Shown in pieces: positions 20,597-54,577 of a DNA stretch of 64,000 nt. The stretch lies in assembly GCA_002691385.1 (NCBI GenBank), contig NZHT01000091.1:4843-68842 (forward strand), given 5' to 3'. Under the pieces are notes generated by a model. That model was not told the DNA's origin. It saw only the letters and a list, made by a program, of their open reading frames with translations, and searched no databases. The stretch comes from Flammeovirgaceae bacterium (GTDB taxonomy: Bacteria > Bacteroidota > Bacteroidia > Cytophagales > Cyclobacteriaceae). Position 1 is the stretch's first letter. Every line of letters starts with the position of its first letter. A program made the position numbers and the translations under genes.

Positions 20597-22660
20597 ATGA
20601 GAGATAGGTTAAACAAATATTTGAGCGATCGAAAACTTTATTTTTTAGGGTTTTTATATTTGATCAATGCGTGCAGTTATCAAAAGGTTGAGCTGAGAGT
20701 GGCAGATATATTTACCGATCATATGGTGTTACAGCAAGAGGCAGATGCGCCTATTTGGGGCTGGGCCAGCCCCAATACTGAGATTACTATTGCTACATCG
20801 TGGAGTGATCAAGTCCATACCTATAGTAATGATTTAGGAGAATGGGAAACCATGATGAGAATACCAAAAACAAATGCTAAACCTCAATGGTTAAAAATCA
20901 CCGCAGTAGATTCAACAATTTTTCTTGAAGATGTACTATTTGGCGAGGTCTGGATAGGGTCAGGACAATCTAATATGGAAATGCCTATGAACGGATGGAT
21001 AGACCGAGGGGATTCATTGAATGATTCGAAAAATGAGATTAAGAAGGCAAATTACCCTAGAATTAGATTATTCCGCGTAAACAAAGTGCAGACTTATGAG
21101 CCAATTCAACACTTAGATGGAAATTGGCTTATTTGTTCGCCGGAGACTGTGTCGAATTTCTCGGCTGTTTTGTATTTTTTTGGTCGAGATCTGCATGAAA
21201 ATATAGAAACTCCTATTGGATTGATCGATGTGAGTTGGGATGGTTCTTCAGCCCAAGCTTGGGTTGCACCTGATTATTTGGAGAAAATACGAGGTTTTGA
21301 AAAAGTAAAAGAGAAATTAACATTGACTGCTCGCGAATTTGAACCTTTCAATGATTGGGTAGGCGAGATGAAGCAAATTCCAAGAGATGAATTGATTGGA
21401 GCAGAAGCCTTCCATTTTGAAAGTGATAAAACAAAATCTTATACTAACTTAAACTACGATGATTCAGTATGGGATACCGTCTCTCATACTAATCTCTCAA
21501 AAGTATTTGGAGAAGATTTTGATGATTATGATTTAGAAGGCTATGATATTAACGGTATGGTATGGTTCCGTCAAGAATTTCAATATTTAGGAGATACACA
21601 TTCAGATAGTTTATTCATATTTTTAGGACCTATAAAACACTTAAATAGTACTTTTTTAAACGGAAACTTGATCGGAAGAAAAGAGCATTGGGGGTCTAAT
21701 CAAGGTGACGTAGTATATAAAATATCCTCAAAAGATCTCAATAATGGTAAAAATGTGTTAGCTGTTCGAATCATTGATGTTTGGGGGAATGCTGGATTTA
21801 AAAAAGGAGTAACACCCAATATATTGGATGATCAAAACAAGGAGCTCATTGTGTTGAATGATTGTTGGAAATTTAAACGTTCCGCTGTACTTTTCAAAGA
21901 TAGCTTTTATGTTATTAGCGATGATGAACAAGTCAGAGAATTACCTCTCAGAATGTCGATTTTTACTCCGGCATCAATGTTTAATGGGATGATTGCTCCA
22001 TTGATTCCTTTCTCTATTAAAGGAGTTATTTGGTATCAAGGAGAGACAAATGTTTCTAGACCTATGCTATACCAAAAAATATTTCCAGCTGTTTTTAATA
22101 GTTGGAGGTTTCATTGGGGGCAAGGAGATTTCCCCTTTTACTATGCTCAGTTGTCATCATATGGTGGTTTTAGTAAGGAGGTGACTAAATTACGCGAGGC
22201 ACAACTTTTTACGTTGAGAGAAAAAAATGTGGGGATGGCGGTAACCATTGATATTGGGGATTTTGATAAAATACATATCCATAATAAACAAGATGTGGGG
22301 AAACGAATTGCATTATGGGCCCGTGCTAAAGATTATGGAGATACGTCTTTGGTATATTCTGGACCCTTGTATAAAGATGTAACTTTTGATGGTGCTAATG
22401 CCGTCATTTCTTTTGATCATGTGGGCAGTGGCATAGATACTACAAAGAATTTGGAGCATTTTGAAATAGCAGGATCAGATAAAATATTTTATCCAGCAGA
22501 GGTCCGCATAGTAAACAACAAAGTAATTGCTAGAGCCGATCAGGTAATAAAACCCGTTTTTATTAGGTATGCTTGGCTTCCCTATGTCAAAGCGGATTTG
22601 TATAATTTTGAAGGACTACCTGCCGCACCTTTTAGAAACTACACTAACGATGAGGAATAA
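20597..22660 (+). CDS. SASA-family carbohydrate O-acetylesterase (sialate O-acetylesterase-like) with an inserted galactose-binding-like domain
   Basis: 687 aa. GEVWIGSGQSNMEMPM contains the GQSN catalytic Ser motif of the SASA/DUF303 family. A central jelly-roll-like insert carries WFRQEF...LNGNLIG...NVLAVRI. This is the first gene of the PUL. Confidence 0.75.
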   Translation: MRDRLNKYLSDRKLYFLGFLYLINACSYQKVELRVADIFTDHMVLQQEADAPIWGWASPNTEITIATSWSDQVHTYSNDLGEWETMMRIPKTNAKPQWLKITAVDSTIFLEDVLFGEVWIGSGQSNMEMPMNGWIDRGDSLNDSKNEIKKANYPRIRLFRVNKVQTYEPIQHLDGNWLICSPETVSNFSAVLYFFGRDLHENIETPIGLIDVSWDGSSAQAWVAPDYLEKIRGFEKVKEKLTLTAREFEPFNDWVGEMKQIPRDELIGAEAFHFESDKTKSYTNLNYDDSVWDTVSHTNLSKVFGEDFDDYDLEGYDINGMVWFRQEFQYLGDTHSDSLFIFLGPIKHLNSTFLNGNLIGRKEHWGSNQGDVVYKISSKDLNNGKNVLAVRIIDVWGNAGFKKGVTPNILDDQNKELIVLNDCWKFKRSAVLFKDSFYVISDDEQVRELPLRMSIFTPASMFNGMIAPLIPFSIKGVIWYQGETNVSRPMLYQKIFPAVFNSWRFHWGQGDFPFYYAQLSSYGGFSKEVTKLREAQLFTLREKNVGMAVTIDIGDFDKIHIHNKQDVGKRIALWARAKDYGDTSLVYSGPLYKDVTFDGANAVISFDHVGSGIDTTKNLEHFEIAGSDKIFYPAEVRIVNNKVIARADQVIKPVFIRYAWLPYVKADLYNFEGLPAAPFRNYTNDEE

Positions 22661-24377
22661 TAAGGACTGCATATTACTTAATTTATCATTAATTATTTTT
22701 GTGCCATTGATGATGGGATGTCAAAAAGAACTCGATGAACCCATTGAATCAAAAGATAAAATTAATGTTTTATGGTTGGTAGCTGAAGATTTGGGTCCTT
22801 ACATACCTCCCTTTGGAGATTCAACGATTAAAACCCCCCATTTGAGTCGATTAGCAGCTGAAGGAGTGAGGTATAACAATGTTTTTAGCGTATCAGGTGT
22901 ATGTTCTCCAAGCCGTGCGGCATTGGCTACTGGAATGTATCCCTCTAGCATAGGGGCACATCATATGCGTACTTTGTACCAACAACCAGCAGCCAAAAAA
23001 ATGGGGATTATCAATTATGAGGTGGTCTTGCCGATAGGTGTTAAAATGGTCAGTGAAATTTTACGTGAAAATGGATATTATACCTCCAATAACGCCAAAG
23101 AAGATTATCAGTTTTTTCCATCTCAAATGGCATGGGATGAATCCAGTAATTATGCACATTGGCGAAATCGACCCAACGGTAAACCGTTTTATTCCATGTT
23201 TAGCTTCATAGTTACTCATGAATCAGGTTTATGGTATCATTTTGGTAAGATAAATGATCTAGACACGTTTCCTCCTTCTAGGACCACATCACGACGCAAA
23301 ATTAATCGTCAATTAGGAAAAAAAGGACGTATTCCTTTAATTGATGAGGATCTTCCAGTAGTAATACCTCCTTATCTTCCCAATACAGAAAAAGTGGTAA
23401 ATGATGTGAGGAGAATGTATTCAAACATATCTCGTATGGATGAGCATGTCGGAAATATACTGATTCAACTGGAGGAAGATGGATTGTTGGAAAACACCAT
23501 TATAGTGTGGTTTACCGATCATGGTGGCCCATTGCCAAGGCAAAAGAGGTTATTGTATGATGCAGGATTACAGGTACCCATGATTGTAAGATATCCCAAC
23601 AAATTTCGTTCGGGTGAAATCGATGACAGACTGATCAGTTTTGTAGATTTTGCTCCGACCTTATTGTCCATGACTGCGATAAAGCCACCTGAATATATGC
23701 AAGGCATTGCTTTTGAGGGTAAGTTCAAAGTTCCTGCCGAAAGAAAATTTATCCATGCAGGAGCTGATCGGTTTGATGAGACTTATGATATGATTCGAGC
23801 CGTTCGAGATAAAAGGTTTAAATATTTAAAGAATTTCCAACCACAAAAGCCCTACTATTTGCCATTGGCATATCGTGAAAATATGGCAAGTATGCAGGAG
23901 CTATTGCGTTTAAATTCGATTGATTCATTGAATGACAAACAAGCCTTATGGTTTCGCAAAACTAAGCCAAATGAAGAGCTTTTTGATACGTCTGCGGATC
24001 CCCATGAATTAAATAATCTAGCAGAAGATCCACAATTTTCGAAGATATTGAGTGAACTAAGAAAGGAGTGTGAAAAATGGATGCATAATACCAAAGATAT
24101 GGGGCATATCCCTGAACAAGAAATAATCAATACCTTTTGGCCTGATAAAATTCAACCCTTAACGGCTAATCCTGTACTTAATGTTCAAAATGGGAAATTA
24201 CAAGTAACTTGTCAAACTGAGGGAGCTTCCATAGGCTATAAACGGTCCCAAGATTTGAAAGATGGGCTTGGCTGGCAGATTTACAAATCGCCAATATACG
24301 TGGATCAAGAAGCACCTATTTTGGTTATTGCGCATCGCATTGGATTTGCTCCAAGCGATACAATTAAATGGAATTAA
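22650..24377 (+). CDS. Sulfatase (S1 formylglycine-dependent family), lipoprotein
   Basis: CSPSR in VSGVCSPSRAALATGMYP is the Cys-type FGly motif. The preferred start is the ATG at 22650 (MRNNKDCILLNLSLIIFVPLMMGCQ signal/lipobox). This overlaps the upstream stop by 11 nt. The longer ORF-track start at 22569 lies inside the esterase gene. Confidence 0.85.
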   Translation: MRNNKDCILLNLSLIIFVPLMMGCQKELDEPIESKDKINVLWLVAEDLGPYIPPFGDSTIKTPHLSRLAAEGVRYNNVFSVSGVCSPSRAALATGMYPSSIGAHHMRTLYQQPAAKKMGIINYEVVLPIGVKMVSEILRENGYYTSNNAKEDYQFFPSQMAWDESSNYAHWRNRPNGKPFYSMFSFIVTHESGLWYHFGKINDLDTFPPSRTTSRRKINRQLGKKGRIPLIDEDLPVVIPPYLPNTEKVVNDVRRMYSNISRMDEHVGNILIQLEEDGLLENTIIVWFTDHGGPLPRQKRLLYDAGLQVPMIVRYPNKFRSGEIDDRLISFVDFAPTLLSMTAIKPPEYMQGIAFEGKFKVPAERKFIHAGADRFDETYDMIRAVRDKRFKYLKNFQPQKPYYLPLAYRENMASMQELLRLNSIDSLNDKQALWFRKTKPNEELFDTSADPHELNNLAEDPQFSKILSELRKECEKWMHNTKDMGHIPEQEIINTFWPDKIQPLTANPVLNVQNGKLQVTCQTEGASIGYKRSQDLKDGLGWQIYKSPIYVDQEAPILVIAHRIGFAPSDTIKWN

Positions 24378-24379
24378 TA

Positions 24380-25726
24380 ATGAAAGAAAAAGAGCGGATA
24401 AAGTATTTTTTTCCTGTAGTGTTTTTACTGACATTATTCTCTTGTGATTCGCAAAATACAAACAAAGAAAATGTGCCCAATATTATCTTGATTATGGCAG
24501 ATGATTTGGGTTATGAAACCCTTGGTGCCAATGGCGGTACCTCTTACAATACACCCAATCTAGATCTCATGGCAGAATCAGGTATTAGGTTTGATCACTG
24601 TTATTCGCAGCCTGTATGTACCCCTAGTAGGGTTAAGATCATGACAGGTATTAATAACATACGTAATTATGTTAAATTTGGCTACTTAGACACTGGACAA
24701 ACAACTTTTGGTCATTTGTTACACGAGGGTGATTATGCTACAGCAATTATCGGTAAGTGGCAATTAGGTAAATCAGCCTCAGGACCTCAGCATTTTGGTT
24801 TTGATGAGCATTGTCTTTGGCAAGTGACTGAAGGTCGAATAGATTCCTTAGGTAGAGATACCAGGTATTCAGAGCCAGTACTTCAAATCAATGGTTTGTT
24901 ACAAACCTTAGATAAGGAAGATTATGGTCCTGATGTAGTGAGTCAGTTTGGTATCAAATTCATGGAATTCGCCGTGCAGAAAGATCAGCCATTTTTCCTT
25001 TACTATCCCATGATGTTAACACATTGCCCATTTAGTCCCACCCCAGACTCTAAAGATTGGATGGTAAATGAGGATGCCGTTTTCACTTATGCGGGAGATT
25101 CAATTTATTTTAAGGAGATGGTAAATTATATGGATAAACTAGTTGGACGTATAAATGAAAAACTTACTGAGCTGGGTATAAGAGACAATACTATGATTAT
25201 ATTCATTGGAGACAATGGCACAGATCAACCTATCATTTCAAATATTGGAGCAGATAAAGTATTTGGAGGAAAAGGTCGATCAACAAATACTGGGACCCAC
25301 GTTCCCCTTATTATTCAATGGCCGGGTGTTATAAAAAAAGGATTTTCCACGAATCATTTGGTAGATTTTAGTGATTTTTTGCCTACTATATGCGAGGCGG
25401 CTGGTGTATTAGTTCCAGATAAATTAGACATTGATGGCAAAAGTTTTTTTCCTTTAATAACAGGGAATGATCAAACGACTCGTGAACCGATATATAGTTG
25501 GTTTAAAAACAATAGAAAGCCTTTTGATGTTAGTGTATACGCTCGTAATCAGAGATTTAAGCTTTATGATAATGGTAAATTCTATGATGTAAAAGCAGAC
25601 CCACTTGAAGCCAACTCATTGAATATTGAATTTCTTAATCATGAGGCAAGAGAAGCCTATGAACTATTAAGGAAGTCAATAATTTCAAATGGTAAAAGGA
25701 GATTAGATGCCGTATCAAATCAGTAA
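24380..25726 (+). CDS. Sulfatase (S1 family), lipoprotein
   Basis: CTPSR in SQPVCTPSRVKIMTG, plus NIILIMADDLGYE. The leader is MKEKERIKYFFPVVFLLTLFSCD. An alternative in-frame ATG exists at 24368. Confidence 0.85.
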   Translation: MKEKERIKYFFPVVFLLTLFSCDSQNTNKENVPNIILIMADDLGYETLGANGGTSYNTPNLDLMAESGIRFDHCYSQPVCTPSRVKIMTGINNIRNYVKFGYLDTGQTTFGHLLHEGDYATAIIGKWQLGKSASGPQHFGFDEHCLWQVTEGRIDSLGRDTRYSEPVLQINGLLQTLDKEDYGPDVVSQFGIKFMEFAVQKDQPFFLYYPMMLTHCPFSPTPDSKDWMVNEDAVFTYAGDSIYFKEMVNYMDKLVGRINEKLTELGIRDNTMIIFIGDNGTDQPIISNIGADKVFGGKGRSTNTGTHVPLIIQWPGVIKKGFSTNHLVDFSDFLPTICEAAGVLVPDKLDIDGKSFFPLITGNDQTTREPIYSWFKNNRKPFDVSVYARNQRFKLYDNGKFYDVKADPLEANSLNIEFLNHEAREAYELLRKSIISNGKRRLDAVSNQ

Positions 25727-25734
25727 ACAACTAT

Positions 25735-27362: not shown

Positions 27363-27926
27363 TTGAGATCATTTTTTAATAATAAAATTTTTTTTTTGGA
27401 GCTATCAGAAAAATTATTGGTAAGTCAGATCAAAGCTAGAAATCGAATAGCGTTTGAAATTATATTCAAAGAATATTATTTACAACTTGTAAGATTTGCT
27501 GAGGGAATGCTATTTGATCCAAAACAAGCCGATGACATAGTTCAAGATCTATTTTTAAACCTCTGGGAAAATGCTCAAAATTTGACTATAAAGAAATCTA
27601 TAAAAGGGTATCTCTACGCATCAACAAGAAATAGATGTTTAAATGAGATTCAGAAATTTCAAATACATGATAAAAATTTACTTCATTATGAAGGAATTCT
27701 AAATTCGGAAAATTTAGTATCTGACAATGATCTAAAAGAAGATTTGATAAAAAAAGTAATGGTTGTCTTAGAGTTACTGCCTAAAAAAATGAAGAAGATA
27801 GTCAAAATGAAGTACCTACAAAATAAAAAGCATCAAGAGATTTCGGAATCATTAAGCATTACAGAGAATACAGTCAATACTCAACTCACTCGAGCAAAGA
27901 AAAAATTAAGAGACTTCCTATATTAA
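27363..27926 (+). CDS. ECF-type RNA polymerase sigma-70 factor (Bacteroidota PUL-associated type)
   Basis: Region 2 (DDIVQDLFLNLWE, YLYASTRNRCLN) and region 4 (LPKKMKKIVKMKYLQNKKHQEISESLSITENTVNTQLTRAKKKL) are present. No ATG is available near the N-terminus, so the start is TTG at 27363 or TTG at 27396. Confidence 0.8.
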   Translation: MRSFFNNKIFFLELSEKLLVSQIKARNRIAFEIIFKEYYLQLVRFAEGMLFDPKQADDIVQDLFLNLWENAQNLTIKKSIKGYLYASTRNRCLNEIQKFQIHDKNLLHYEGILNSENLVSDNDLKEDLIKKVMVVLELLPKKMKKIVKMKYLQNKKHQEISESLSITENTVNTQLTRAKKKLRDFLY

Positions 27927-28039: not shown

Positions 28040-29197
28040 ATGATTAATAGTGATATAATTTGGAAAAAGATTAATAATACTTTGTCAAAAGAAGAGGAGG
28101 TTGAATTTTCAAAGTGGATTGAAAAAAAAGAGCATCAATTATACTATGAGAAAGCATTACAATATTTTAAAAATGGTTCAAATTTTAAAAATGATGAAAT
28201 AAATATTGAATTAAAATGGGAAAATATTGAATCTAGACTTGTCGATTCAAGGTTGATATCAAAATCTTCTTCAAAATTCATCACTGCAGTAGCTGCAAGT
28301 GTCACCCTACTTATAATTAGTACTTTATTCTTCCTAAACTTAAAGCAGAATAAGGCTCCTCTGATAAGTGAAGCAGTGGTAGAACCAGGTAAATCTAAGG
28401 CGACGCTTATTTTAGATGATGGCGAGAGCTATGAACTGTCTCAAAATAACAATTTTAATTTTTTCTCAGGAGTCACTCAAATCTTAAATAAAGGATCTAA
28501 AATTTCATACATTAAAGATAAATTAAATAATAAAGCATCTTTATCTGAAGAAATCTACCATACTCTTGAAATTCCCCGTGGTGGAGAATATTTTATTGAA
28601 CTCTCAGACGGCACGAAAATTTGGATCAATTCGGATTCCAAGTTAAAATATCCTGTTGAATTTATAGGTCAGATTCGTAATATTGAACTGATAGGAGAGG
28701 CATATTTTGAGATTGCCCATAACTCTGAAAAACCCTTTGTTGTTATTTCAGGCAATCAAAGAGTTGAGGTATTGGGAACTTCTTTTAATATTTCGTCATA
28801 CGAACAAGATGATTTCATTTTGACCACTTTGGTTGAAGGTCAAGTTAAGGTAGAAAATTCCCTGAACGAACTAAACAACACTTATTTGAAGCCCAATCAG
28901 CAGAGTATATTAGATAAAAAAACAGGTTCAATAAAAAGCAAAAATGTGAAAGTTGAAGAATATGTTGCTTGGCAGTCTGGCTGGTTTCGATTTAATGACA
29001 AACCGATATCTCAAATCATGGTTACTCTAGCCAGATGGTATGATCTTGAAGTGCTATTTGAAAATGAAAACATTTCTAAAAAGCATTTTTCAGGAGGATT
29101 TAAGAGGTATGATAGCTTTGATCAAGCTAGAAACATAATTGAGCAGACCGGGGAAATAAATTTTAAAGTACAGGGTAAAAAAGTCACCATTTTATAA
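28040..29197 (+). CDS. FecR-family anti-sigma factor (transmembrane sensor)
   Basis: 385 aa with a single TM segment (FITAVAASVTLLIISTLFFL). It has a FecR domain (LSDGTKIWINSDSKLKYP) and a DUF4974-like C-terminus (LARWYDLEVLFEN). Confidence 0.85.
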   Translation: MINSDIIWKKINNTLSKEEEVEFSKWIEKKEHQLYYEKALQYFKNGSNFKNDEINIELKWENIESRLVDSRLISKSSSKFITAVAASVTLLIISTLFFLNLKQNKAPLISEAVVEPGKSKATLILDDGESYELSQNNNFNFFSGVTQILNKGSKISYIKDKLNNKASLSEEIYHTLEIPRGGEYFIELSDGTKIWINSDSKLKYPVEFIGQIRNIELIGEAYFEIAHNSEKPFVVISGNQRVEVLGTSFNISSYEQDDFILTTLVEGQVKVENSLNELNNTYLKPNQQSILDKKTGSIKSKNVKVEEYVAWQSGWFRFNDKPISQIMVTLARWYDLEVLFENENISKKHFSGGFKRYDSFDQARNIIEQTGEINFKVQGKKVTIL

Positions 29198-35807: not shown

Positions 35808-35842
35808 TTTATATGCTTTTAACTAATGTAAACCCCAATGCT

Positions 35843-42901: not shown

Positions 42902-43088
42902 ATAACTAATACCGGAAAAATGTTTTGAAAATTATTTTATAGCAGAAATTAATTTCACAATTATAAAAGTCGAGCGCTATTTCTTATTAAAGCTTTGATA
43001 ATGCGTTAGACTATCATTAATTAACTTCTTTTTGCTTGTGAAATTATGCTCAACAAATTTTTCAGATTATTGATTTTTTTTAAAAACT

Positions 43089-46000: not shown

Positions 46001-49000
46001 GGTTACATTAAATGATTCAATAATAATTGATTCAGATGTTTCTATTAGTCAAATGAAAATGGCTAATGGCTTCGGCAGTGCGATGATATCCTCTTCAAAT
46101 TCATCTGCTCTAACGCTCAATGGAATAGGAGTAACCCAAATAATTCAAAATAATGGAACTGATGTAGATTTACAATTCAATCTAGATGTGGTTATATCTT
46201 CCTCAGATATAGAATCAATTCAGACAAATGGTAGTGGGAAATGTAGTATCACCTTTGGGCCCATTTCCGATTTGACATTAAAATCTATTACTAAATTCGC
46301 AGCTCAAGAAAATAAAAGTATAAATCTGAATGGAGTTTTACAGGGTGAGGGGCAATTTCAAATTGGGGCATCATCGAGTGTTAACTTTGGATCTACCTCT
46401 GATAATAAGTCTTTTACTGGAGGTTTTAAATTTCTAGGGAATAATAGTTTATTGGAAATAAATACAGCTAAAGACAGTACTTTTTTGAAGTCAGAAACTT
46501 TTATATCAACTGATGAAAATTCAACTGGACATAGTATAAATGTGAATTCTGCAAATGTATTGAAGGGTAATATTTCGGTCGATGGTAATAATTTGGTTCT
46601 CAATATTAATGCCAATCAAACGGGCTTAGGAACAATCAATATGGTAAGTGGAACTTTGGATTTGAATTTGGATTCAAGTATAACAGCTTTAATATTTGCT
46701 GATAATTCATCTGCGGATTGGGGTACCGGAACTATTGAAATAACGGGTGCGGGGGATAATGTAATAGGCTTTGGAACCAATTCTAATGGACTTTCAACAA
46801 AACAAATCTCACAGATAGAGATGGATAATCGAGCCGTAACTATTAATTCACTTGGCCAAATTTCGGCAAGTGGATCAGTTCAAGTAATTCAATCAACTTT
46901 CACCAATGCAGGAGGAGATAATCTTTGGTCTAATGCCGATAATTGGTCATCTGGAATACCTAATGTTCAAAATGCAAAAGTTACTTTAAATGAATCATTG
47001 ATATTGGATATGAATGTAACCATAGGTCAAATTAAAATGACTGCGGGATTTGGATCATTATCAATAACTACTAATAATGATGCTGTCCTTAAAATATCTG
47101 GTGATGGAGTAACCCAGCCTATTCAAAATAATGCTGGTAATTTAGAATTCGTTATAGATATTCCAGTTGTCATAGAGTCCATTGATTCACTTGCTGAAAT
47201 ATTTTTTCCTACGGTTCCTGGAGGAATAATAACCTTTGGATCAAATTCATCTTTGCAGCTAAATTCAGATATTACTGTGAACGCGAACAAAAATGCACAA
47301 AAATCGTTTAATTTTAATGGTACACTTTTCGGTTTAGGTAATTTTCAATTAGATGCAGGCACTGTTGTAAATTTTGGTGCAACCTCTGACAATTCAGCCT
47401 TTAATGGAAATTTTGTTTTATTAAAGGATAATGGAGAATTGGTGTCAAATATTACCGATAACGGAATATTTCTACCCACGGGAAGTTCCATTTTAGCAAA
47501 TGGTTCAGGGGGTAGTATCACTGTAAACGGAATTAATACTTTTAATGGGAATATCATTCTCTCTGCAAATGACATTGCGCTAAATATTAATGCAAACCAA
47601 TCCTCAATGGGTCTAATTTTAATTGGAGATTCGCTTAAGACTGACGATGTTAGTTTAGAATTGTCAATAATTAATTCCGTATCAGAGCTTCAATTCAAAG
47701 ATAATTCTATGTCTAATTGGGATAATTTATCCTTAAATATCATTGGTTTTAATGATAATGTAATTGCCTTTGGCACTGACTTTAATGGTCTTACAGTAGC
47801 ACAACTATCTAAAATTGATGTGGGGGGGCCGAGTGTGATAATTAATTCCTCAGGCCAACTAGAGGCAGAAGGAGAAATACCAATTAAATTATCAACCTTT
47901 AATAACGCTGGAGGGGATATGCTTTGGTCTAATCCGGTTAATTGGTCTTCTGGAATCCCAAATGATTCGAGCGCTAAAGTTATTTTAAATGCTTCAGTAA
48001 TAATAGATGTAGATGTCAACATTGCTCAAATGAAATTACAAGGTGGGTTTGGAGATGTGGAAGTCACGGGTAATGAATCCTCTAAATTAAATTTGACAGG
48101 TATTGGGGTAAATTCAATTATTCAAAACAATGGGAGCGATGTAGATCTTATGTTTGACTTGCCTATTGTCATTTCATCAACGGATGTAATTGAGAATATT
48201 CAGACAAATGCTGGAGGTATTTGTAGTATAACGTTTGGCTCGAATTCGAACATCAGTTTAAATTCAAATGTTAAATTCTCCGCCTCGAATGATAGAAAAA
48301 TAAATATGAATGGAATTCTAAATGGATCAGGACAATTTCAAATTGGAACATCTTCAACGATTAATTTTGGTTCATCATCAGACAATGATGCATTCTTGGG
48401 AGGATTTAAAATACTTGGTAATAATAGTCAATTGATAGTTAATACGGACTCAAGTGCTACTTTTTTAAAATCTGGGGTTGAAATAATGATTGATTCAGGT
48501 TCAAACGGGCACAGTGTAACTTTAAATGGTGAGAATGTTTTTTTTGGAGATCTTGCAATTTTAGATAGTCCTTTTAATTTAAATGTAAATGCCAATCAAT
48601 CAGGGATGGGGATAATTACAATGAGTAGTGGTATTTTAAGTTTAATTTTAAACGATTCTATTTCTACATTGGCATTTGCTAATAATTCATCTGCGGAATG
48701 GGGTGATGGAACATTATCGATTAGTGGTTTTGAGGATAATATAATTTCATTTGGAAATGATTTTAGTGGATTAAGTTTAGAACAAATAAAACAAATAAAT
48801 CACGAAGGGGAAGATGTTATAATTAATGAATTTGGGTATTTAATTAATGCAGATTATTCGGAAAATGATCACATTACAGGAATAAATAAAAAGAAAAAAG
48901 AGCAGATATTCTTCCCTAATCCAAACAGTTCTGTCTCTCTAAAATATTCATTTAAAAATTATATTAGGAGTAACGTTATTATATGTGATTTAGAGGGTAA

Positions 49001-49136
49001 AAGTTATATTCATTTTACATCTAATGAAAATTCCGGAGAAATTGATATTTCACAATTATCTCCTGGAGTTTATGTAATAATGGTTCAGGACAATAAGGGT
49101 GAAACCATAGATTCAAGATTGTTCATCAGAAGATGA
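43089..49136 (+). CDS. Giant T9SS-secreted multimodular protein. It has five ~325-aa beta-helix-like modules, an internal GH128-like catalytic domain and a T9SS C-terminal domain.
   Basis: 2015 aa with a signal peptide (IFSFFRILLIPVLGFTQ). Modules B1-B5 share the same start and end motifs as gene 1. The catalytic domain lies between B2 and B3. The tail FFPNPNSSVSLKYS...LSPGVYVIMVQDNKGETIDSRLFIRR is T9SS CTD-like. Confidence 0.85.
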   Translation: MPNMESLVVKKIFSFFRILLIPVLGFTQNTTFNNNGGDNLWSNNANWSNGIANEATAKVTLNADAILDLSVTVAQIKIASSGPSNVTLTNRSEATLTITGNGVTQPIQINKNTTKLTFNLPVVFDSSEDALETMRFNSGNIIITFGAGHSLTLIDKLLVTAVNNNNTLNVDGSLLGSANFNFGAKCNVFFGSESNNSSYTGSIRPTAVDVEITANTSDNGTFIKSGAAIDIQNTGAIITINGSNTLKGNILVGDNNPSLNINANQNSVGLITIGGGTLNLALADDVNSMAFVDNSFSDWGTGTLSITGAGDNEVSFGTDANGITSAQLSKITLSGSSVEINSEGKLSITGSNDGSLVSESTFTNGGGNNLWSNTSNWSAGIPNILTAKVTLEASVIVDSNVEIAQIKLGGTASSNVVVSSLNSSILTINGSGVTQPIQNNKADLDLNINLATVLSSLEVEIIQISGGGSSSITFGSSSDLTLNSNTKFIAQNDRRFTFEGILKGSGQFMLGTASTANFGSNSDNTQHTGGFKMLGNNGKINVNTQADGTFLTPGATIAPDASSIGHNITVNAANVLKGNISVLSNPLNLNINANQSGIGIITMTSGILNLVVAPDVTLVSFVDNSSADWGAGTLAITGAGENEVAFGTNANGLTSSQISQTSISGSLVEINSQGQLSISEEILDKKGIAMSYKEATWPTRISRLKPFWHYSWNRDMREQIPDSVEFVPMFWGAGSVTNDEILRIKGLADAGKVKYVLGFNEPDLESQANMTIDEAIALWPKLEEIGVPLGSPVPAGLNNGWLEEFMKKANANNLRVDFVCIHLYRENDAQIFLDAVDQTYQKYGKPIWITEMSVKDKQAQTVAENRFSMTEVLETMKILLPELYNREYLSRFAWFTATRDSPNYPGNSSSVLYDESDNITILGEYYAEFKANPAFKAKDISESTFTNAGGDKLWSNSANWSDGVPNVSSAKVTLNDSIIIDSDVSISQMKMANGFGSAMISSSNSSALTLNGIGVTQIIQNNGTDVDLQFNLDVVISSSDIESIQTNGSGKCSITFGPISDLTLKSITKFAAQENKSINLNGVLQGEGQFQIGASSSVNFGSTSDNKSFTGGFKFLGNNSLLEINTAKDSTFLKSETFISTDENSTGHSINVNSANVLKGNISVDGNNLVLNINANQTGLGTINMVSGTLDLNLDSSITALIFADNSSADWGTGTIEITGAGDNVIGFGTNSNGLSTKQISQIEMDNRAVTINSLGQISASGSVQVIQSTFTNAGGDNLWSNADNWSSGIPNVQNAKVTLNESLILDMNVTIGQIKMTAGFGSLSITTNNDAVLKISGDGVTQPIQNNAGNLEFVIDIPVVIESIDSLAEIFFPTVPGGIITFGSNSSLQLNSDITVNANKNAQKSFNFNGTLFGLGNFQLDAGTVVNFGATSDNSAFNGNFVLLKDNGELVSNITDNGIFLPTGSSILANGSGGSITVNGINTFNGNIILSANDIALNINANQSSMGLILIGDSLKTDDVSLELSIINSVSELQFKDNSMSNWDNLSLNIIGFNDNVIAFGTDFNGLTVAQLSKIDVGGPSVIINSSGQLEAEGEIPIKLSTFNNAGGDMLWSNPVNWSSGIPNDSSAKVILNASVIIDVDVNIAQMKLQGGFGDVEVTGNESSKLNLTGIGVNSIIQNNGSDVDLMFDLPIVISSTDVIENIQTNAGGICSITFGSNSNISLNSNVKFSASNDRKINMNGILNGSGQFQIGTSSTINFGSSSDNDAFLGGFKILGNNSQLIVNTDSSATFLKSGVEIMIDSGSNGHSVTLNGENVFFGDLAILDSPFNLNVNANQSGMGIITMSSGILSLILNDSISTLAFANNSSAEWGDGTLSISGFEDNIISFGNDFSGLSLEQIKQINHEGEDVIINEFGYLINADYSENDHITGINKKKKEQIFFPNPNSSVSLKYSFKNYIRSNVIICDLEGKSYIHFTSNENSGEIDISQLSPGVYVIMVQDNKGETIDSRLFIRR
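43170..45130 (+). repeat. Modules B1 and B2 of the ~325-aa repeat family
   Basis: B1 starts TFNNNGGDNLWSNNANWSNGIANEATAKVTL (about 43170). B2 starts ESTFTNGGGNNLWSNTSNWSAGIPNILTAKVTL (about 44163) and ends ...LTSSQISQTSISGSLVEINSQGQLSIS. Confidence 0.8.
45131..45900 (+). other. Embedded GH128-like catalytic domain, paralogue of the product of 34437-35807
   Basis: The translation reads KGIAMSYKEATWPTRISRLKPFWHYSWNRDM...GFNEPDLESQ...FVCIHLY...GKPIWITEMSV...ILGEYY. It aligns by eye along its full length with the lipoprotein enzyme, with roughly two-thirds of residues identical. Both putative catalytic Glu motifs are retained. Confidence 0.75.
45911..48840 (+). repeat. Modules B3, B4 and B5 of the ~325-aa repeat family
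   Basis: Module starts were read at about 45911 (ESTFTNAGGDKLWSNSANWSDGVPN), 46892 (STFTNAGGDNLWSNADNWSSGIPN) and 47891 (STFNNAGGDMLWSNPVNWSSGIPN). Confidence 0.8.
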
Positions 49137-49186
49137 TTATAAAGTAATGAGAATCAAGCATAGTCAAAAAATCAAAATAAAAATCA

Positions 49187-51490
49187 ATGCTAAAATTTAT
49201 TATTCGTATTGCTAAAGTGCTCTTCTTTATCTCTGCTTTTTGTATTCCAAAACTCAATGGTCAAATATATAAAAACCCGAATACCAATATAGAAGACCGG
49301 ATAACAGATTTAATGGATAAGATGACACTCGAAGAGAAGATCGGGCAAATGTGTCAATTTGTAGCACCTGCACACATAGAAAAAACGAAGAGTCGACTCA
49401 AAGGTGAAGAACTTATTTATAATGATCAATGGGGTACTTATCCGGGTTTAAATGCTGTAAAGCTTAACGAAAAAATAAAAAAGGGAGAAATTGGATCTTT
49501 TTTACATGTTAAAAATGTAGTTGAGGCAAATGAACTTCAAAAAATAGCTCAAAAATCACGTCTAGGAATTCCATTATTAATAGGTATTGATGCAATTCAT
49601 GGGCATGGAATGGTCAAAGGGACCACAATTTTCCCAACTCAAATAGGCTTATCAAGTACCTGGGATGACCAACTAATTTATGAGGTTGCCAAAGCTACTG
49701 CAAAAGAAGTTAGAGCTACAGGCATGCATTGGACTTTTTCTCCAAATGTAGAAGTTGCCAGAGATCCTCGATGGGGAAGAGTTGGTGAGACTTTTGGTGA
49801 AGATCCTATGCTTGTTGGGAGAATGGGCCAAGCTTTCACAAAAGGATATCAAGGAAATTTTAGTGATGAAAATGTTATTGCATGTGCCAAACACTTTATT
49901 GCAGGTGGAGAACCATATAATGGAACAAATGCATCACCAATTGATGTATCAGAAAGACAATTGAGAGAGATTTGGTTGCCCCCATTTAAAAAGCAAATTG
50001 AAGCAGGTGTATTTACTTTTATGGCTTCCCATAATGAGATAAATGGTGTGCCTGCGCACGCCAATAAGTTCCTTCTTAATGATATTTTGAAAAATGAATG
50101 GAAATTTGATGGATTTGTAGTTTCGGATTGGATGGATATTGAGAGAATCCATAAACTTCATAAGCTTACTTCAGATAAAAAAGAATCAGTATTAAAAAGT
50201 GTTAATTCAGGTATGGGTATGCACATGCACGGACCTGGTTTTATGAAGCCCTTATTGGAACTCGTTGAGGAAGGATTAGTACCAGTAAAAAAAATTGACG
50301 ATGCTTGTATGTCAATTTTAAAAGCCAAATTTCTACTTGGGCTTTTTGAAAATCCATTTGTTGATCAATCAAAAACTAAATCCATATTATTCAATGAAGG
50401 CCATAAAGAATTAGCTTTAAATGCTGCTAGAAAATCGATAGTACTACTAAAAAATAATGGTATTTTACCTTTAAATAATCCTAAAAAAATATTGATTACA
50501 GGCCCAAACGCCAATAATCATCGAATATTGGGAGATTGGACATTTAAGCAACCTGATGCTAATGTTCAAACGGTTTATCAAGGTTTTCAAAAGGTATTTG
50601 ATGAGTCTAATGTTGATTTTATCAATTCTGGTGAAAGCTTACTATATCCTGATGATACAAAACTTGAAGGGACAATATCAAAGGCTGAAGGTTATGATGC
50701 CATTATCGTTGTATTGGGATCAAACTCGCTTAGATTCCAACGGAAAGAAAAAACTTGTGGAGAGAATGTGGACCGATCCCAGATAAACTTGTTGGGTAAT
50801 CAACTTCGTCTTGTTCAAGAATTATATAAAATCAATAATAATATAGTTGTTGTGATGGTCAATGGTCGACCATTGTCTGAGCCATGGATAACGGAAAATA
50901 TTCCAGGAATAATTGAAGCTTGGGAGCCAGGTTCATTTGCAGGGCAAGCAATTGCAGAAATTGTCAAGGGAGAGATAAATCCTTCAGGAAAACTTACAAT
51001 TACATTCCCTCATCATTCAGGACAAATACCTATGGTATATAATCAAAAACCATCATCATTTTTCAGAAAATATATTGATGCTCCATCTGCGCCAATGTGG
51101 CATTTTGGTTATGGATTGAGTTATTCAGAATTCCAATATTCAAACCCTTACATCACAAAGCTGGCAGATGGCTTTATGATTGAGATTGAGATTGAAAATA
51201 AAAGTTCGATTGAAGGTGATGAAATTACACAATTATACATTCGTGATGAAGTTTCATCTGTAACTAGACCACTTAAAGAGCTTATTGACTATAAAAGAAT
51301 TACTTTGAAAGGTGGTGAAAAAAAAATAATTCCTTTTGAATTTTCTATAGAGGATCTTGCTTTTTATAATGTAGATATGCAAAAGGTTGTAGAATCGGGT
51401 GATTTTTTAGTGTCCATTGGTAGCTCATCTCGAGAGGAAGATTTGATTCAAATTGAATTCAATATTGACAAAAATTTCAACTATGATTAA
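49187..51490 (+). CDS. Glycoside hydrolase family 3 (BglX-type beta-glucosidase/exo-glycosidase)
   Basis: 767 aa with a signal peptide. Motifs are GIDAIHGH, RDPRWGR..E.FGEDP, GFVVSDW (nucleophile Asp context), and a C-terminal FnIII-like domain (ITQLYIRDEVSSVTRPLKEL). Confidence 0.9.
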   Translation: MLKFIIRIAKVLFFISAFCIPKLNGQIYKNPNTNIEDRITDLMDKMTLEEKIGQMCQFVAPAHIEKTKSRLKGEELIYNDQWGTYPGLNAVKLNEKIKKGEIGSFLHVKNVVEANELQKIAQKSRLGIPLLIGIDAIHGHGMVKGTTIFPTQIGLSSTWDDQLIYEVAKATAKEVRATGMHWTFSPNVEVARDPRWGRVGETFGEDPMLVGRMGQAFTKGYQGNFSDENVIACAKHFIAGGEPYNGTNASPIDVSERQLREIWLPPFKKQIEAGVFTFMASHNEINGVPAHANKFLLNDILKNEWKFDGFVVSDWMDIERIHKLHKLTSDKKESVLKSVNSGMGMHMHGPGFMKPLLELVEEGLVPVKKIDDACMSILKAKFLLGLFENPFVDQSKTKSILFNEGHKELALNAARKSIVLLKNNGILPLNNPKKILITGPNANNHRILGDWTFKQPDANVQTVYQGFQKVFDESNVDFINSGESLLYPDDTKLEGTISKAEGYDAIIVVLGSNSLRFQRKEKTCGENVDRSQINLLGNQLRLVQELYKINNNIVVVMVNGRPLSEPWITENIPGIIEAWEPGSFAGQAIAEIVKGEINPSGKLTITFPHHSGQIPMVYNQKPSSFFRKYIDAPSAPMWHFGYGLSYSEFQYSNPYITKLADGFMIEIEIENKSSIEGDEITQLYIRDEVSSVTRPLKELIDYKRITLKGGEKKIIPFEFSIEDLAFYNVDMQKVVESGDFLVSIGSSSREEDLIQIEFNIDKNFNYD

Positions 51491-53099
51491 AGACAATTTA
51501 GAAAATAAAACTGTGAAAATTCATAACTTATTATTATCAAGCTTTTTATTAATATCAATTTTTTCCTGTCAAAGGAATGAAAGATTAAATAAACCGAATA
51601 TAATATTTATCATGAGTGATGATCATGCTGCACATGCCATTTCATCCTATGGAGGTATTTATGATAAAATTGCTCCAACTCCTAATATTGATAAGATAGG
51701 ATTTGAGGGAATTAGATTTGAGAACGTGTTCTGTACAAATGGTATCTGTGGTCCTTCGAGAGCATCTATTTTGACTGGAAAGTATAGTCACCGGAATGGC
51801 TTCTATAAGAATGAAAAAGGAGGTAAATTCAATAAAGATCAATGGACATTCCCAAAAGAATTTCAAGAAAATGGATATAAAACGGCTCTATTTGGTAAAT
51901 GGCATTTGGGAAGTGAGCCCGTTGGTTTCGATCACTTTAAATATCATGATAATAAGGGGCAACAGGGATTTTACTATAATCCAATATATAACGAAAACGG
52001 GAATCGAGTAACGGAAGAAGGTTATGCGACTAACTTAACAACTGATTTTGCCTTGAATTGGCTTAAAGATGAAGGTGAGATTGATAAACCTTTCATGATG
52101 ATGTTACAGTTCAAGGCCCCTCACAGAAGTTGGGAACCAGATGAAAAATATAGAGATTTTTTTGGTGATCAAGAATTGCCTTATCCTAAAACTTTTAATG
52201 ACAATTATGAGGGGAGAGAGCAAACAGCAGGTGATACAGATATGACAATGGATTTTTTTAATAGAAATGATATGAAACTGAGTCCTCCCGACTCTTTAAC
52301 TGGTAGAAAAGAGCGTAATAAGTGGTTAAGATCAGGTGATAAGCGTGGATTTGGTGAAGGTTGGCTTCCTAAAAGTGGGATGACACAAGAAGAAGCTAGA
52401 AAATGGAAATATCAAAGATATATTAAGGATTATCTTGCCTGTATAAAGTCAGTAGACGATAATATAGGGCGTGTTCTTGACTATTTGGAAAAATCTGAAT
52501 TGGACAAAAACACAGTTGTTATCTATACTTCTGATCAAGGATTTTACTTGGGGGATCACGGTTGGTTCGATAAGAGATTTATGTATGAGGAATCTTTAAA
52601 GATGCCTTTTTTGATGAAATATCCAGGAACAAAAAATAGGGAAATGGTAAATAAGGATTTTATAACAAATATTGATTTTGCATCAACATTATTGGATATT
52701 GCTGGGATCAAAGGAAAAGAAGAACTTCAAGGTAGAAGTTTTCTTCCTAATATACTAGATGAAAATTCAAAAGATTGGAGACAATCAATGTACTATCATT
52801 ATTACGAATTTCCTTTTTGGCATCATGTCCAGCCACATTATGGTATCCGAAATCAGAAATTTAAACTAATTCATTTTTATTATAATATTGATGTCTGGGA
52901 ATTATATGACCTTCAAAATGATCCTGAGGAAATCACTAATTTGATAAATGATCCGAGTTATGCTGATGTTATAAAAGAAATGAAATTAGATTTAAAAAAA
53001 CTTCAAATAGAATATGGAGATGACAAATCGCTTGATGAATTCAGATCAATTACTGATACTGATTTCGGTCACATTGGAGGTAAAGGAATACGGGAATAA
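51483..53099 (+). CDS. Sulfatase (S1 family), lipoprotein
   Basis: CGPSR in TNGICGPSRASILTGKYSHRNG, plus NIIFIMSDDHAAHA and GKWHLG. The preferred start is the ATG at 51483 (MIKDN...LLISIFSCQ), which overlaps the GH3 stop (ATGATTAA). The ORF-track start at 51453 lies inside GH3. Confidence 0.85.
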   Translation: MIKDNLENKTVKIHNLLLSSFLLISIFSCQRNERLNKPNIIFIMSDDHAAHAISSYGGIYDKIAPTPNIDKIGFEGIRFENVFCTNGICGPSRASILTGKYSHRNGFYKNEKGGKFNKDQWTFPKEFQENGYKTALFGKWHLGSEPVGFDHFKYHDNKGQQGFYYNPIYNENGNRVTEEGYATNLTTDFALNWLKDEGEIDKPFMMMLQFKAPHRSWEPDEKYRDFFGDQELPYPKTFNDNYEGREQTAGDTDMTMDFFNRNDMKLSPPDSLTGRKERNKWLRSGDKRGFGEGWLPKSGMTQEEARKWKYQRYIKDYLACIKSVDDNIGRVLDYLEKSELDKNTVVIYTSDQGFYLGDHGWFDKRFMYEESLKMPFLMKYPGTKNREMVNKDFITNIDFASTLLDIAGIKGKEELQGRSFLPNILDENSKDWRQSMYYHYYEFPFWHHVQPHYGIRNQKFKLIHFYYNIDVWELYDLQNDPEEITNLINDPSYADVIKEMKLDLKKLQIEYGDDKSLDEFRSITDTDFGHIGGKGIRE

Positions 53100-53155
53100 A
53101 CTTGATTAGCTGTAAAATAAAATCTAAAGTATTCTTTAAAATAATTATTCAGATT

Positions 53156-54577
53156 TTACCTGTGATAAGCGTGAACTGATTCCTTCCAATTTTGAAGACT
53201 GTCTATCATTTCAGAAGCAATGTTTGGTTCAAGACCAATCAAATTGTTTTTTTCTTCAATATCCTTATTAATGTCATACAATTCAAATAGATCATCTTCA
53301 TAGAAGTGAATTAGCTTATAATTTCCCCTACGGATAGCTGAACTTGCCCTATCACCAGTAGATTTTGGTCTTGGAATTGGAGAATGCCAGTATAAGGATC
53401 GGTCGTGATTTTGAAGATCTTTACCAAGTAATATGTCAGCATAACTTCGGCCATCAATAGGGGGAAGATCATTGTAAGGAACTAGATCTACGAGATTAAT
53501 CAAAGATAACAAGTGATCCGTTCCAATAATTTGATGATCTGTCCAACCATTGTTGATTTTATCCTTCCAAAAAACAAAATGGGGAATACGAATTCCTCCC
53601 TCATAAAGATGCCCTTTACCTGCCCTTAACGGATAATTTGATGTAGCTAGTGATCTTTTATTTCCTCTATTTGATAATCCACCATGATCAGATGTAAAAA
53701 CTATAATTGTATTATCAAATTGTTTAGTTGATTTAAGCGCTTCAATTATTTTACCAAGACTTTGATCGATACTTTTTATCATTCCGGCATAACTAGAATT
53801 ATTTCTTATCAATTTTTCTTCGCCTGTCCAAGAGCTGATTTTGATGTCATTTATAGTATCTTTAATCTGTTTTTGAGTCTTTTTCTGATCAAACTCGTTA
53901 AAATATGTTTGTTTACTCTCCAGAGGAGTATGAACACCATAATGAGAGAGGAGAAGGAAGAATGGTTCATCACTATATTTTTTAATCATGTCAACAGATA
54001 TTTCAGTTAATTGATCTGTTAAATATTTCCCATTATTTGTTTTTGGGATATTATTAATAAATGGTGGCTTATTTTTCCCACTACCAGATTTAACAAAATT
54101 ATATGGGTAAAAATAAGATTTAGGTGCTCCAGCATCTCCTCCAGCTATATTAACCTCAAATCCCACATGTTCTGGATAGACGCCATTCATTGACAAGTGC
54201 CATTTACCTACAAAAAAAGTTTTATATCCTGACGCTTTAAAAAAACTTGTTAAAAAGGAATCCTCATATGTTAAACCCTTTGATTTTCCAGGTAGCTTTG
54301 CCCTTGCGGGATACATTCCAGTAATAATTGAATATCTTGAAGGTTCGCATCTGGGATGTGAGGCATAAGCTTGACTGAAGTTCATACTTCTACTCGATAA
54401 GTCATCAATATTCGGAGTTTCATAAAAAGTTGAATCGCGAAAACTGACATCCATCCATCCGAGATCATCTATAATAAAAAAAATGATATTAGGGGGACTT
54501 TCCTTCAATGGGGTGCAACTAATTAATAGGAAACTGCTAACAAATAAAGTTATCCAAGTATTGCTTTTGGTTATCAT
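53156..54577 (-). CDS. Sulfatase (S1 family), lipoprotein
   Basis: 473 aa with leader FLLISCTP, NIIFFIIDDLGWMD, CEPSR in SHPRCEPSRYSIITGMYPAR, GKWHL, and SDHGG. Confidence 0.85.
   Translation of the reverse strand: MITKSNTWITLFVSSFLLISCTPLKESPPNIIFFIIDDLGWMDVSFRDSTFYETPNIDDLSSRSMNFSQAYASHPRCEPSRYSIITGMYPARAKLPGKSKGLTYEDSFLTSFFKASGYKTFFVGKWHLSMNGVYPEHVGFEVNIAGGDAGAPKSYFYPYNFVKSGSGKNKPPFINNIPKTNNGKYLTDQLTEISVDMIKKYSDEPFFLLLSHYGVHTPLESKQTYFNEFDQKKTQKQIKDTINDIKISSWTGEEKLIRNNSSYAGMIKSIDQSLGKIIEALKSTKQFDNTIIVFTSDHGGLSNRGNKRSLATSNYPLRAGKGHLYEGGIRIPHFVFWKDKINNGWTDHQIIGTDHLLSLINLVDLVPYNDLPPIDGRSYADILLGKDLQNHDRSLYWHSPIPRPKSTGDRASSAIRRGNYKLIHFYEDDLFELYDINKDIEEKNNLIGLEPNIASEMIDSLQNWKESVHAYHR

Follow-up and report, generated by a model that had tools for sequence, protein, structure and literature searches.

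Canonical marine flavobacterial polysaccharide utilization loci (PULs) for laminarin encode GH16_3, GH17, GH30 and GH3 enzymes together with SusC and SusD, and they contain no sulfatases. In Bacteroides thetaiotaomicron, control by an extracytoplasmic function (ECF) sigma factor, an anti-sigma factor and a SusC with an STN domain is characteristic of PULs for host O-glycans. Another kind of locus, a putative PUL with GH128 and four sulfatases, has been described in Polaribacter clade 3-b without an assigned substrate (Avcı et al. 2020, PMC7242417). Its susCD genes were expressed in situ during a 2009 North Sea bloom, and it adjoins a predicted sulfated-xylan PUL (PMC7242417). Here we describe a ~34-kb locus at positions 20597-54577 of a 64-kb stretch of contig NZHT01000091.1 from the Tara Oceans metagenome-assembled genome of a Flammeovirgaceae bacterium, a pelagic member of the Cytophagales close to GTDB Marinoscillum; this whole stretch is called the window. 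The locus is of the kind noted in Polaribacter, with a susC/susD pair, two GH128 domains and five sulfatases, but it is not the same locus. A preliminary description had found no nameable substrate that matches its enzyme set. No characterized syntenic PUL and no biochemically characterized GH128/sulfatase PUL was found in the literature searched; the gene combination itself is not entirely new, since the Polaribacter report precedes it. With about even confidence, we propose that the locus is a PUL by which a pelagic Cytophagales bacterium uses a phytoplankton glycan that is beta-1,3-linked, of gluco type, sulfated and probably O-acetylated.

Genes were called from a program-made list of open reading frames (ORFs) and from Pfam scans of the window translations (protein accessions MAJ51572-MAJ51594). 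Fourteen genes were recovered in the locus, the same set as in the preliminary description:

20597-22660 (+), CE20-type carbohydrate O-acetylesterase, 687 aa, PF03629 at 54.7 bits
22650-24377 (+), sulfatase 1 (Sulf1), 575 aa, motif CSPSR, PF00884, S1_8-like
24368-25726 (+), sulfatase 2 (Sulf2), 452 aa, motif CTPSR, PF00884 at 149.8 bits
25735-27102 (-), sulfatase 3 (Sulf3), 455 aa, motif CSPSR, PF00884 at 198 bits, converging on Sulf2
27363-27926 (+), ECF sigma factor, 187 aa, TTG start, Sigma70_r2 and Sigma70_r4_2
28040-29197 (+), FecR-type anti-sigma factor, 385 aa, PF04773 (FecR) and PF16344 (FecR_C)
29279-32695 (+), SusC-like TonB-dependent transporter, 1138 aa, Plug and CarbopepD_reg_2, N-terminal STN at aa 50-100
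32692-34437 (+), SusD-like surface glycan-binding lipoprotein, 581 aa, PF07980 and PF14322 (SusD_RagB/SusD-like_3)
34437-35807 (+), lipoprotein with GH128 and CBM4_9 (GH128a), 456 aa, PF11790 at 165.6 bits, PF02018 at 53.5 bits, Cys20 followed by GEE
35813-42901 (+), giant protein 1 of the type IX secretion system (T9SS), 2362 aa, with beta-helix modules, LVIVD propeller, Big_12, cadherin and T9SS C-terminal domain
43089-49136 (+), T9SS giant 2, 2015 aa, with beta-helix modules, GH128 at aa 701-926 and T9SS C-terminal domain
49187-51490 (+), GH3 exo-beta-glycosidase, 767 aa, PF00933, PF01915 and PF14310
51483-53099 (+), sulfatase 4 (Sulf4), 538 aa, motif CGPSR, predicted S1_11-type 6-O-sulfatase
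53156-54577 (-), sulfatase 5 (Sulf5), 473 aa, motif CEPSR, S1_16-like, converging on Sulf4

Apart from the STN domain, whose scores are given below, the Pfam matches of these genes are so far over the curated cut-offs that chance is not an issue. The adjacent susC/susD pair is co-located with two GH128 domains, a GH3, a CE20, five sulfatases and an ECF/FecR regulator pair, as expected of a Sus-like PUL.

We compared this gene set with the known systems. SusC/SusD, a predicted endo-beta-1,3-glucanase function and a GH3 exo-enzyme are common to the locus and to canonical laminarin PULs. However, the endo-enzymes of the latter belong to GH16 or GH17 and that of the locus to GH128, and the locus differs from them in its five sulfatases, acetylesterase, T9SS giants and ECF/anti-sigma control. 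Because no GH16, GH17 or GH30 was detected by Pfam in the 64-kb window and five sulfatases are present, the locus is not a canonical laminarin PUL. The ECF sigma factor, FecR-type anti-sigma factor and STN domain on SusC are shared with the O-glycan PULs of B. thetaiotaomicron; in contrast, the CAZyme set is different and the GH families typical of O-glycan breakdown are absent.

The nearest described arrangement is that of Polaribacter. Homologues of the GH128/CBM4 protein with 41-46% identity are found in cultured Flavobacteriaceae and Marinilabilia, and we inspected five loci outside the Cytophagales (P. litorisediminis, a Polaribacter metagenome-assembled genome (MAG), a Flavobacteriaceae MAG, Yeosuana sp. 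AK3 and Marinilabilia rubra). In all five, the order is SusC, SusD, GH128/CBM4, a small T9SS protein and sulfatases. Two to four sulfatase ORFs lie within 10 kb of the GH128/CBM4 gene in every one (in M. rubra, L028, two of the three are short fragments), and four are headed by a hybrid two-component sensor. Like the locus in the window, these Polaribacter-type loci (L022, which is CP082966; L023, the Polaribacter MAG; L029, Yeosuana; and L028) encode a SusC-SusD pair followed by a GH128+CBM4_9 protein of ~450 aa, additional T9SS-secreted GH128 or CBM4 proteins and several S1 sulfatases. Large T9SS GH128 proteins occur in L022 and L023. Unlike the window, they lack counterparts of the S1_11 and S1_8 sulfatases, a CE20, a GH3 and the beta-helix module of the window; some carry GH16 and PF13229 beta-helix proteins instead (L024 and L029), and the regulator, where seen, is the hybrid two-component sensor and not an ECF/anti-sigma pair. 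Because SusC is only ~30%, SusD ~25% and the sulfatases at most 36% identical (GH128, 41-46%), the Polaribacter-type loci are analogues of the locus in the window and not its orthologues.

One basis for predicting a beta-1,3-linked target is the pair of GH128 domains. The two domains (in the gene at 34437 and at aa 701-926 of giant 2) are 70% identical to each other and match PF11790 at 165.6 and 160.6 bits (cut-off, 21). Their nearest solved relative is AmGH128_I (6UAQ), a subgroup-I endo-beta-1,3-glucanase, at 39% identity. In GH128 enzymes, the Glu of the NEP motif is the acid/base, the Glu of the TE motif is the nucleophile and the HxY motif activates the nucleophile, these residues forming part of the -1 subsite (PMC10956234). 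In the alignment with AmGH128_I, both domains carry GFNEPD, LHLY or IHLY, and WITEMS, and the E-to-Q mutant structure 6UFL marks the Glu of the TE motif. Both domains thus keep the acid/base and nucleophile of the -1 subsite as well as the HxY motif, and they are predicted to be endo-beta-1,3-glucanases. The preliminary description had suggested that the GH128-like enzymes might have a specificity other than plain beta-1,3-glucan; the conserved catalytic motifs and the nearest relative give no positive sign of this.

The prediction of a sulfated target comes from the five sulfatases, all of which match PF00884 (122-198 bits) and have an intact C/S-x-P-x-R motif; the Cys-type motifs CSPSR, CTPSR, CSPSR, CGPSR and CEPSR are exactly those reported earlier. 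Subfamilies were assigned from the nearest solved relatives in the PDB, so that each assignment is to be read as consistent with a SulfAtlas class and not as a formal classification. Sulf4 is the clearest case. It matches 5G2V (BT4656, a GlcNAc-6-sulfatase) over aa 32-515 at 460 bits (E 8e-137), followed by 7P24 (440 bits) and 7LHA (362 bits), and the first named non-S1_11 enzyme among the matches listed is 9IHK (S1_30A) at 141 bits. Sulf4 is therefore clearly placed in S1_11 by similarity. The closest matches of Sulf1 are S1_8 enzymes from the lambda-carrageenan cascade (9BB9 'S1_8A', 262 bits; S1_8C, 225; S1_8B, 193), with SGSH next at 129 bits, and Sulf5 matches 9FO1 'S1_16' at 287 bits and 6UST at 264 bits. 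These scores are consistent with an S1_8-like Sulf1 and an S1_16-like Sulf5. Sulf3 matches ARSA (245 bits) and S1_15B (228 bits) and may be ARSA-like or S1_15-like, and the best match of Sulf2 is 6BIA at only 142 bits. S1_8 enzymes are 2-O-sulfohydrolases (PMC12549532). S1_11 enzymes are 6-O-sulfatases; they recognize the O3 and O4 of D-gluco or L-galacto sugars, and in many aquatic members the N-acetyl pocket is missing (PMC10154612). Characterized S1_16 enzymes are 4-O-sulfatases of galacto-type sugars, and the S1_11 and S1_16 types both take part in mucin desulfation (PMC10154612). The published regiospecificities of the three assigned subfamilies are therefore 6-O (S1_11), 2-O/2-N (S1_8) and 4-O (S1_16). 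A 1,3-linked hexopyranose has free hydroxyls at positions 2, 4 and 6 only, so that this set fits a beta-1,3 backbone with multiple sulfates; from the nearest solved relatives of Sulf1, Sulf5 and Sulf4, we infer a 2-, 4- and 6-O-sulfation pattern.

Next to the sulfatases, the esterase and the GH3 enzyme bear on the substrate. The esterase matches 9EGA (350 bits), 9H4U (Fl8CE20_II, 297 bits) and 7KMM (XacXaeA, 291 bits) over its full length. CE20 enzymes have an SGNH/SASA domain split by an ancillary domain, and characterized members deacetylate xylan and xyloglucan oligosaccharides (PMC12313940). In the protein from the window, the SGNH/SASA domain is likewise split by a beta-sandwich insert (a weak Pfam match at aa 287-391, before the SASA part at 473-571), and the signal peptide is of lipoprotein type. 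Since the esterase belongs to CE20 by these full-length matches, the O-acetylated target of the preliminary description is plausible. The GH3 enzyme scores 572 bits with the NCBIfam model for exo-beta-1,3/1,6-glucosidase and 544 bits with that for beta-xylosidase, both under the cut-off; in the PDB, it matches a beta-xylosidase at 495 bits and a beta-glucosidase at 459 bits.

The gene junctions were read from the sequence, and they are as previously reported. The CE20 and Sulf1 genes overlap by 11 nt, susC and susD share ATGA, susD and the GH128 gene share TAATG, and the GH3 and Sulf4 genes share ATGATTAA, an 8-nt overlap. Sulf1 and Sulf2 overlap by 10 nt, or are 2 nt apart if the second ATG is the start. 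Convergent sulfatase pairs (Sulf2/Sulf3 and Sulf4/Sulf5) stand at both ends of the locus. The same-strand gaps from FecR through Sulf4 are 81, -4, -1, 5, 187, 50 and -8 nt. By these junctions, susC/susD/GH128, GH3/Sulf4 and CE20/Sulf1/Sulf2 are predicted to be translationally coupled. Because Sulf4 overlaps GH3 in the same-strand run led by susC, at least one sulfatase is coupled to that run. Transcription units were judged by gene spacing only, and by this measure Sulf3 and Sulf5 are each transcribed alone, toward the ends of the neighboring gene runs. Scans of 19.9-56.7 kb for sigma-70 promoters and intrinsic terminators gave counts at the level of shuffled sequence and no site in the intergenic gaps; as can be expected for Bacteroidota, they carry no information. 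A TAnnTTTG motif at 27333, 30 nt upstream of the ECF gene, is weak evidence for a promoter; this motif and the one upstream of CE20 are too short to carry weight. A 14-bp hairpin with a T-rich tail was seen at 45238-45272, where giant 2 encodes the conserved IPDSVEFVP of its GH128 domain, and is probably a chance occurrence.

To place the locus among its relatives, we compared the SusD protein and the gene neighborhoods. At E<=1e-20, 1119 homologues of SusD were found. The best 120 have 74-92% identity, most of them being from assemblies of marine metagenomes, and some of the clusters comprise hundreds of sequences. In the species set, MAGs and single-amplified genomes (SAGs) of 'Marinoscillum sp.' come closest, with SusD 73-78% identical. 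Twenty-one loci from such pelagic 'Marinoscillum' and Flammeovirgaceae MAGs and SAGs (L001-L021) were compared through their neighborhoods and a tblastn synteny table. The constant core in these loci is SusC-SusD-GH128/CBM4_9, and this triad is orthologous to that of the window (SusC 68-72%, SusD 73-79% and GH128/CBM4 63-68% identical). In 12 of the 21, including L004-L007, L010-L012, L014-L016 and L020, the ~325-aa beta-helix module of the window is found in adjacent T9SS proteins; unlike the giants of the window, these proteins have 700-1100 aa and no embedded GH128. The relatives further differ from the window in having no ECF/FecR pair, no STN extension on SusC, no CE20, no orthologous GH3 (the GH3 of L010 and L011 is only 34% identical) and at most two sulfatases. 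The arrangement met most often in the sampled close relatives is the bare triad. In L008, L009 and L019, a sulfatase of 550 aa, placed in S1_11 by a 484-bit match to BT4656, lies directly upstream of susC; L010 and L011 have two sulfatases flanking the triad and the distant GH3, and L016 and L020 have sulfatases on both sides of it. The window is the most elaborate version seen among these triad loci. We propose that the triad is an ancestral and widespread core, to which the regulators, giants, GH3, esterase and most sulfatases were added in particular lineages.

The ECF sigma factor, FecR and the SusC STN domain are encoded together, as in trans-envelope ECF/anti-sigma signaling. In full-length SusC the STN domain scores 23 bits, under the Pfam cut-off of 28.4; when the first 130 aa were scanned alone, it scored 30.8 bits. 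The first ~115 aa of the SusC from the window are missing in all 21 relatives that align at 68-72% identity, whose SusC has ~1040 aa. No ECF or FecR gene was found near the triad in the neighborhoods and the synteny table of the close relatives, so that among the 21 compared, ECF, FecR and STN are present only in the window version. Because the closest triads have neither an adjoining regulator nor the SusC N-terminus, and the flavobacterial GH128 PULs have hybrid two-component sensors, the type of regulator follows lineage and not substrate. Thus, the earlier hint that ECF/anti-sigma/STN control points to an O-glycan-like substrate does not stand.

From the gene content, the following route of degradation may be envisaged. 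On or near the cell surface, the two T9SS-secreted giants would together bind and cleave the polymer, giant 2 through a GH128 domain amid five beta-helix modules and giant 1 with its four beta-helix modules, propeller and immunoglobulin-like/cadherin domains. The GH128-CBM4 lipoprotein and SusD would then pass oligosaccharides to SusC. Ligand-bound SusC may signal through STN to FecR, releasing the ECF sigma factor and inducing the run from susC to Sulf4. In the periplasm, exo-sulfatases would strip the 6-O (S1_11), 2-O (S1_8) and 4-O (S1_16-like) sulfates, the two further sulfatases would take off other groups, and CE20 would take off acetyl. Finally, GH3 may free monosaccharides from the non-reducing end.

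Several points weigh against a sulfated beta-1,3-glucan as the substrate. The subfamily assignments depend on the nearest solved structures, and Sulf2 and Sulf3 have no clear nearest subfamily. By analogy with characterized enzymes, an S1_16-like Sulf5 would act on galacto- and not gluco-configured sugars, and a CE20 esterase would act on xylan or xyloglucan. The GH3 enzyme appears equally close to xylosidases, and its scores fit a glucosidase or a xylosidase. As judged from spacing, CE20-Sulf1-Sulf2, Sulf3 and Sulf5 would form transcription units separate from the susC-led run. No naturally sulfated beta-1,3-glucan of phytoplankton was found in the literature searched, and the sole natural sulfated glucan found is a minor wall component of red algae. 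Furthermore, most close triads (L001-L007, L012-L015, L017 and L018) have no sulfatase within 10 kb. Because their SusD is 73-79% identical to that of the window, these bare triads probably bind the same ligand, and the ligand could therefore be a plain or lightly sulfated beta-1,3-glucan. The main uncertainty is thus whether the ligand is a sulfated beta-1,3-glucan, plain laminarin with incidental neighboring genes, or another sulfated polymer.

In the second of these cases, the core would be an ordinary uptake system for laminarin or beta-1,3-glucan with an unsulfated ligand, and the sulfatases and esterase, gathered in a flexible island, would serve other substrates or trim rare decorations. 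The predominance of the bare triad among close relatives, the canonical GH128 catalytic machinery, the variability of the region (see below) and the treatment of GH128 as laminarinase in marine surveys all agree with this idea. However, we consider it rather unlikely: Sulf4 overlaps GH3 by 8 nt inside the susC-led run, S1_11 lies directly upstream of susC in other lineages, sulfatases are present at all five GH128/CBM4 loci sampled in other orders, and the GH16, GH17 and GH30 enzymes of laminarin PULs are absent from the window. The same observations (the Sulf4-GH3 overlap, the S1_11 gene upstream of susC in L008, L009 and L019, and the sulfatases in five of five distant loci) bear out the link between sulfatases and core that the preliminary description had assumed.

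In the third case, the target would be a sulfated non-glucan (a beta-1,3-xylan, a galactan, a mixed heteroglycan or a glycoprotein glycan), and the GH128/CBM4 clade would have a specificity new to GH128. This fits a GH3 at least as close to beta-xylosidases, the deacetylation of xylans and xyloglucans by characterized CE20 enzymes (PMC12313940), the action of characterized S1_16 and S1_8 enzymes on galactose sulfates, the position of the Polaribacter 3-b GH128 PUL beside a predicted sulfated-xylan PUL (PMC7242417), and the fact that GH128a is only 39% identical to any characterized GH128. Nevertheless, we regard a non-glucan target as unlikely, because characterized GH128 enzymes act on beta-1,3-glucans in published sources, the residues of the -1 subsite are kept, S1_11 acts specifically on sugars of D-gluco or L-galacto configuration (PMC10154612), and Pfam detected no GH10, GH43, GH2 or other xylan- or galactan-degrading enzyme in the locus. 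A sulfated glycan with beta-linked glucose-like residues, as first suggested in the preliminary description, is very probably the target and remains the best reading, with the recurrence of GH128 together with sulfatases and the Sulf4/GH3 overlap in its support.

Sulfated algal glycans resist breakdown and are thought to help carbon storage in the ocean, and few bacterial pathways for them are known from plankton. The locus links a SusD family that is very often recovered in ocean metagenomes to defined desulfating enzymes in an uncultured, streamlined lineage, and its sulfatase set predicts the sulfation pattern of the target glycan. SusD, CBM4, the beta-helix module and the GH128 domains are possible probes with which the glycan might be caught from seawater. 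More tentatively, a 2-, 4- and 6-O-sulfated, acetylated polymer of the beta-1,3-glucan type may be a regular product of open-ocean phytoplankton; GH128/CBM4 PULs would then possibly be its marker across Cytophagales, Flavobacteriales and Marinilabiliales, and the ~325-aa repeat a new binding or cleaving module for it.

This repeat is present in nine copies in the two giants, with pairwise identities of 37-90%. In giant 1, four modules (aa ~24-1345) are followed by an LVIVD beta-propeller (~1440-1880), Big_12 and cadherin domains, and no recognizable catalytic domain was found by Pfam. Giant 2 has two modules, the GH128 domain at aa 701-926, three more modules and the T9SS C-terminal domain. 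The T9SS sorting domain (PF18962) is at the extreme C-terminus of both giants, with scores of 38.4 and 35.5 bits (cut-off, 27). Repeats 2 and 3 of giant 1 (36899-37888 and 37889-38872) are 90% identical in protein, compared with 37-62% for other pairs, which indicates a recent tandem duplication; copies could also have been collapsed or expanded in the short-read assembly. No meaningful Pfam match to the module was obtained even at E<=1. The AlphaFold2 model of one module (aa 355-680 of giant 2; pLDDT 86.8) is all-beta. When it was searched against the PDB with Foldseek, the best E was 0.15, and the weak top matches were nearly all right-handed beta-helices (autotransporter passengers, PL6 lyases, phage tailspikes and a fucoidan lyase). 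From the model, the fold class alone can be stated. A profile search found 468 proteins at E<=0.001 among 1.84 billion representatives, and by these searches the module appears to be a rare, undescribed family.

We then considered the integrity of the locus. Three independent contigs, drawn from other samples (Tara among them), match 41411-59967 of the window at 99.7% identity and keep the order of giant 1, giant 2, GH3, Sulf4, Sulf5 and the flank. Therefore, the right half of the locus and its right junction are not an assembly chimera. In a sister lineage (L025 and L026), the flanks have ~83% nucleotide identity and the same genes on both sides, and between them there is no PUL but two DEAD-box helicases and a 279-aa ORF without Pfam matches. 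At 12283-12657, L025 and L026 match 22623-23000 of the window; the matching piece consists of 27 nt from the end of the esterase gene and ~350 nt from the beginning of Sulf1. This Sulf1 remnant, which is 86% identical in protein over 118 aa, resembles a deletion scar. Because the sister lineage has the same flanks and only this remnant, the PUL is a variable island that some close relatives have and others do not. Taken together, the bare triad, a triad with a single sulfatase, the 34-kb locus and the scar form a natural series for the growth and shrinkage of PULs, which adds to the value of the locus beside its abundant core module, predicted sulfation pattern and new beta-helix module. That the locus is an assembly or binning chimera of unrelated pieces, as its origin in a MAG and the long internal repeats of the giants (two copies being 90% identical) might suggest, is very improbable and was rejected in view of the three matching contigs from giant 1 through the flank, the sister lineage with the same flanks on both sides and the remnant at the site, and the continuous GC content and skew across the window.

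The genes outside the locus were also inspected. For sulfatase maturation, 43 ORFs of at least 90 aa were scanned with Pfam across the 64-kb window, short ORFs nested in longer genes being left out, and neither a formylglycine-generating enzyme (FGE, PF03781) nor a radical-SAM maturase was found among them, in agreement with the preliminary description. This absence says little, because an FGE gene lies ~10 kb from the triad in the relatives L001-L003. In these three (positions 1-628), the FGE gene is upstream of a bare triad without a sulfatase within 10 kb, so that those genomes must encode sulfatases elsewhere.

Both flanks of the locus are of housekeeping type. The left flank has electron transfer flavoprotein (ETF), nuclease, nucleoside transporter, POT transporter and GNAT genes. 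The right flank consists of a gene for a BNR-like lipoprotein, a redoxin gene and CusCBA-type efflux genes. The BNR-like protein (403 aa, 54634-55845, minus strand) is encoded directly past the 3' end of the locus. It was considered as a missing glycosidase and rejected, since it has no Pfam match over the cut-off and no sequence match in the PDB. In Ekhidna and in the PUL-less sister lineage, the BNR-like gene accompanies redoxin and copper-efflux genes. Because it stays with them, the right-hand boundary is correct, and the limits of the locus given in the preliminary description, with the BNR-like gene assigned to the flank, can be kept. The BNR-like protein has ~8000 homologues, of which the named ones are all of Cytophagales type (Ekhidna, Marinoscillum, Cyclobacteriaceae), and its gene always adjoins redoxin and copper/silver efflux genes. 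NCBI names it 'exo-alpha-sialidase' in relatives; it has only a sub-threshold BNR_2 match, and the label is probably misleading.

Two further observations were made near the left end of the window. A GH15/trehalase-like gene (6350-8131, plus strand) converges, with a 14-nt overlap, on a fused trehalose-6-phosphate synthase/phosphatase gene (8118-10295, minus strand), so that this pair at 6350-10295 couples trehalose breakdown with trehalose synthesis. In addition, a 245-aa protein encoded at 3784-4521 (plus strand), next to a Na+/H+ exchanger gene, matches GPP34 (Golgi phosphoprotein 3) at 77 bits.

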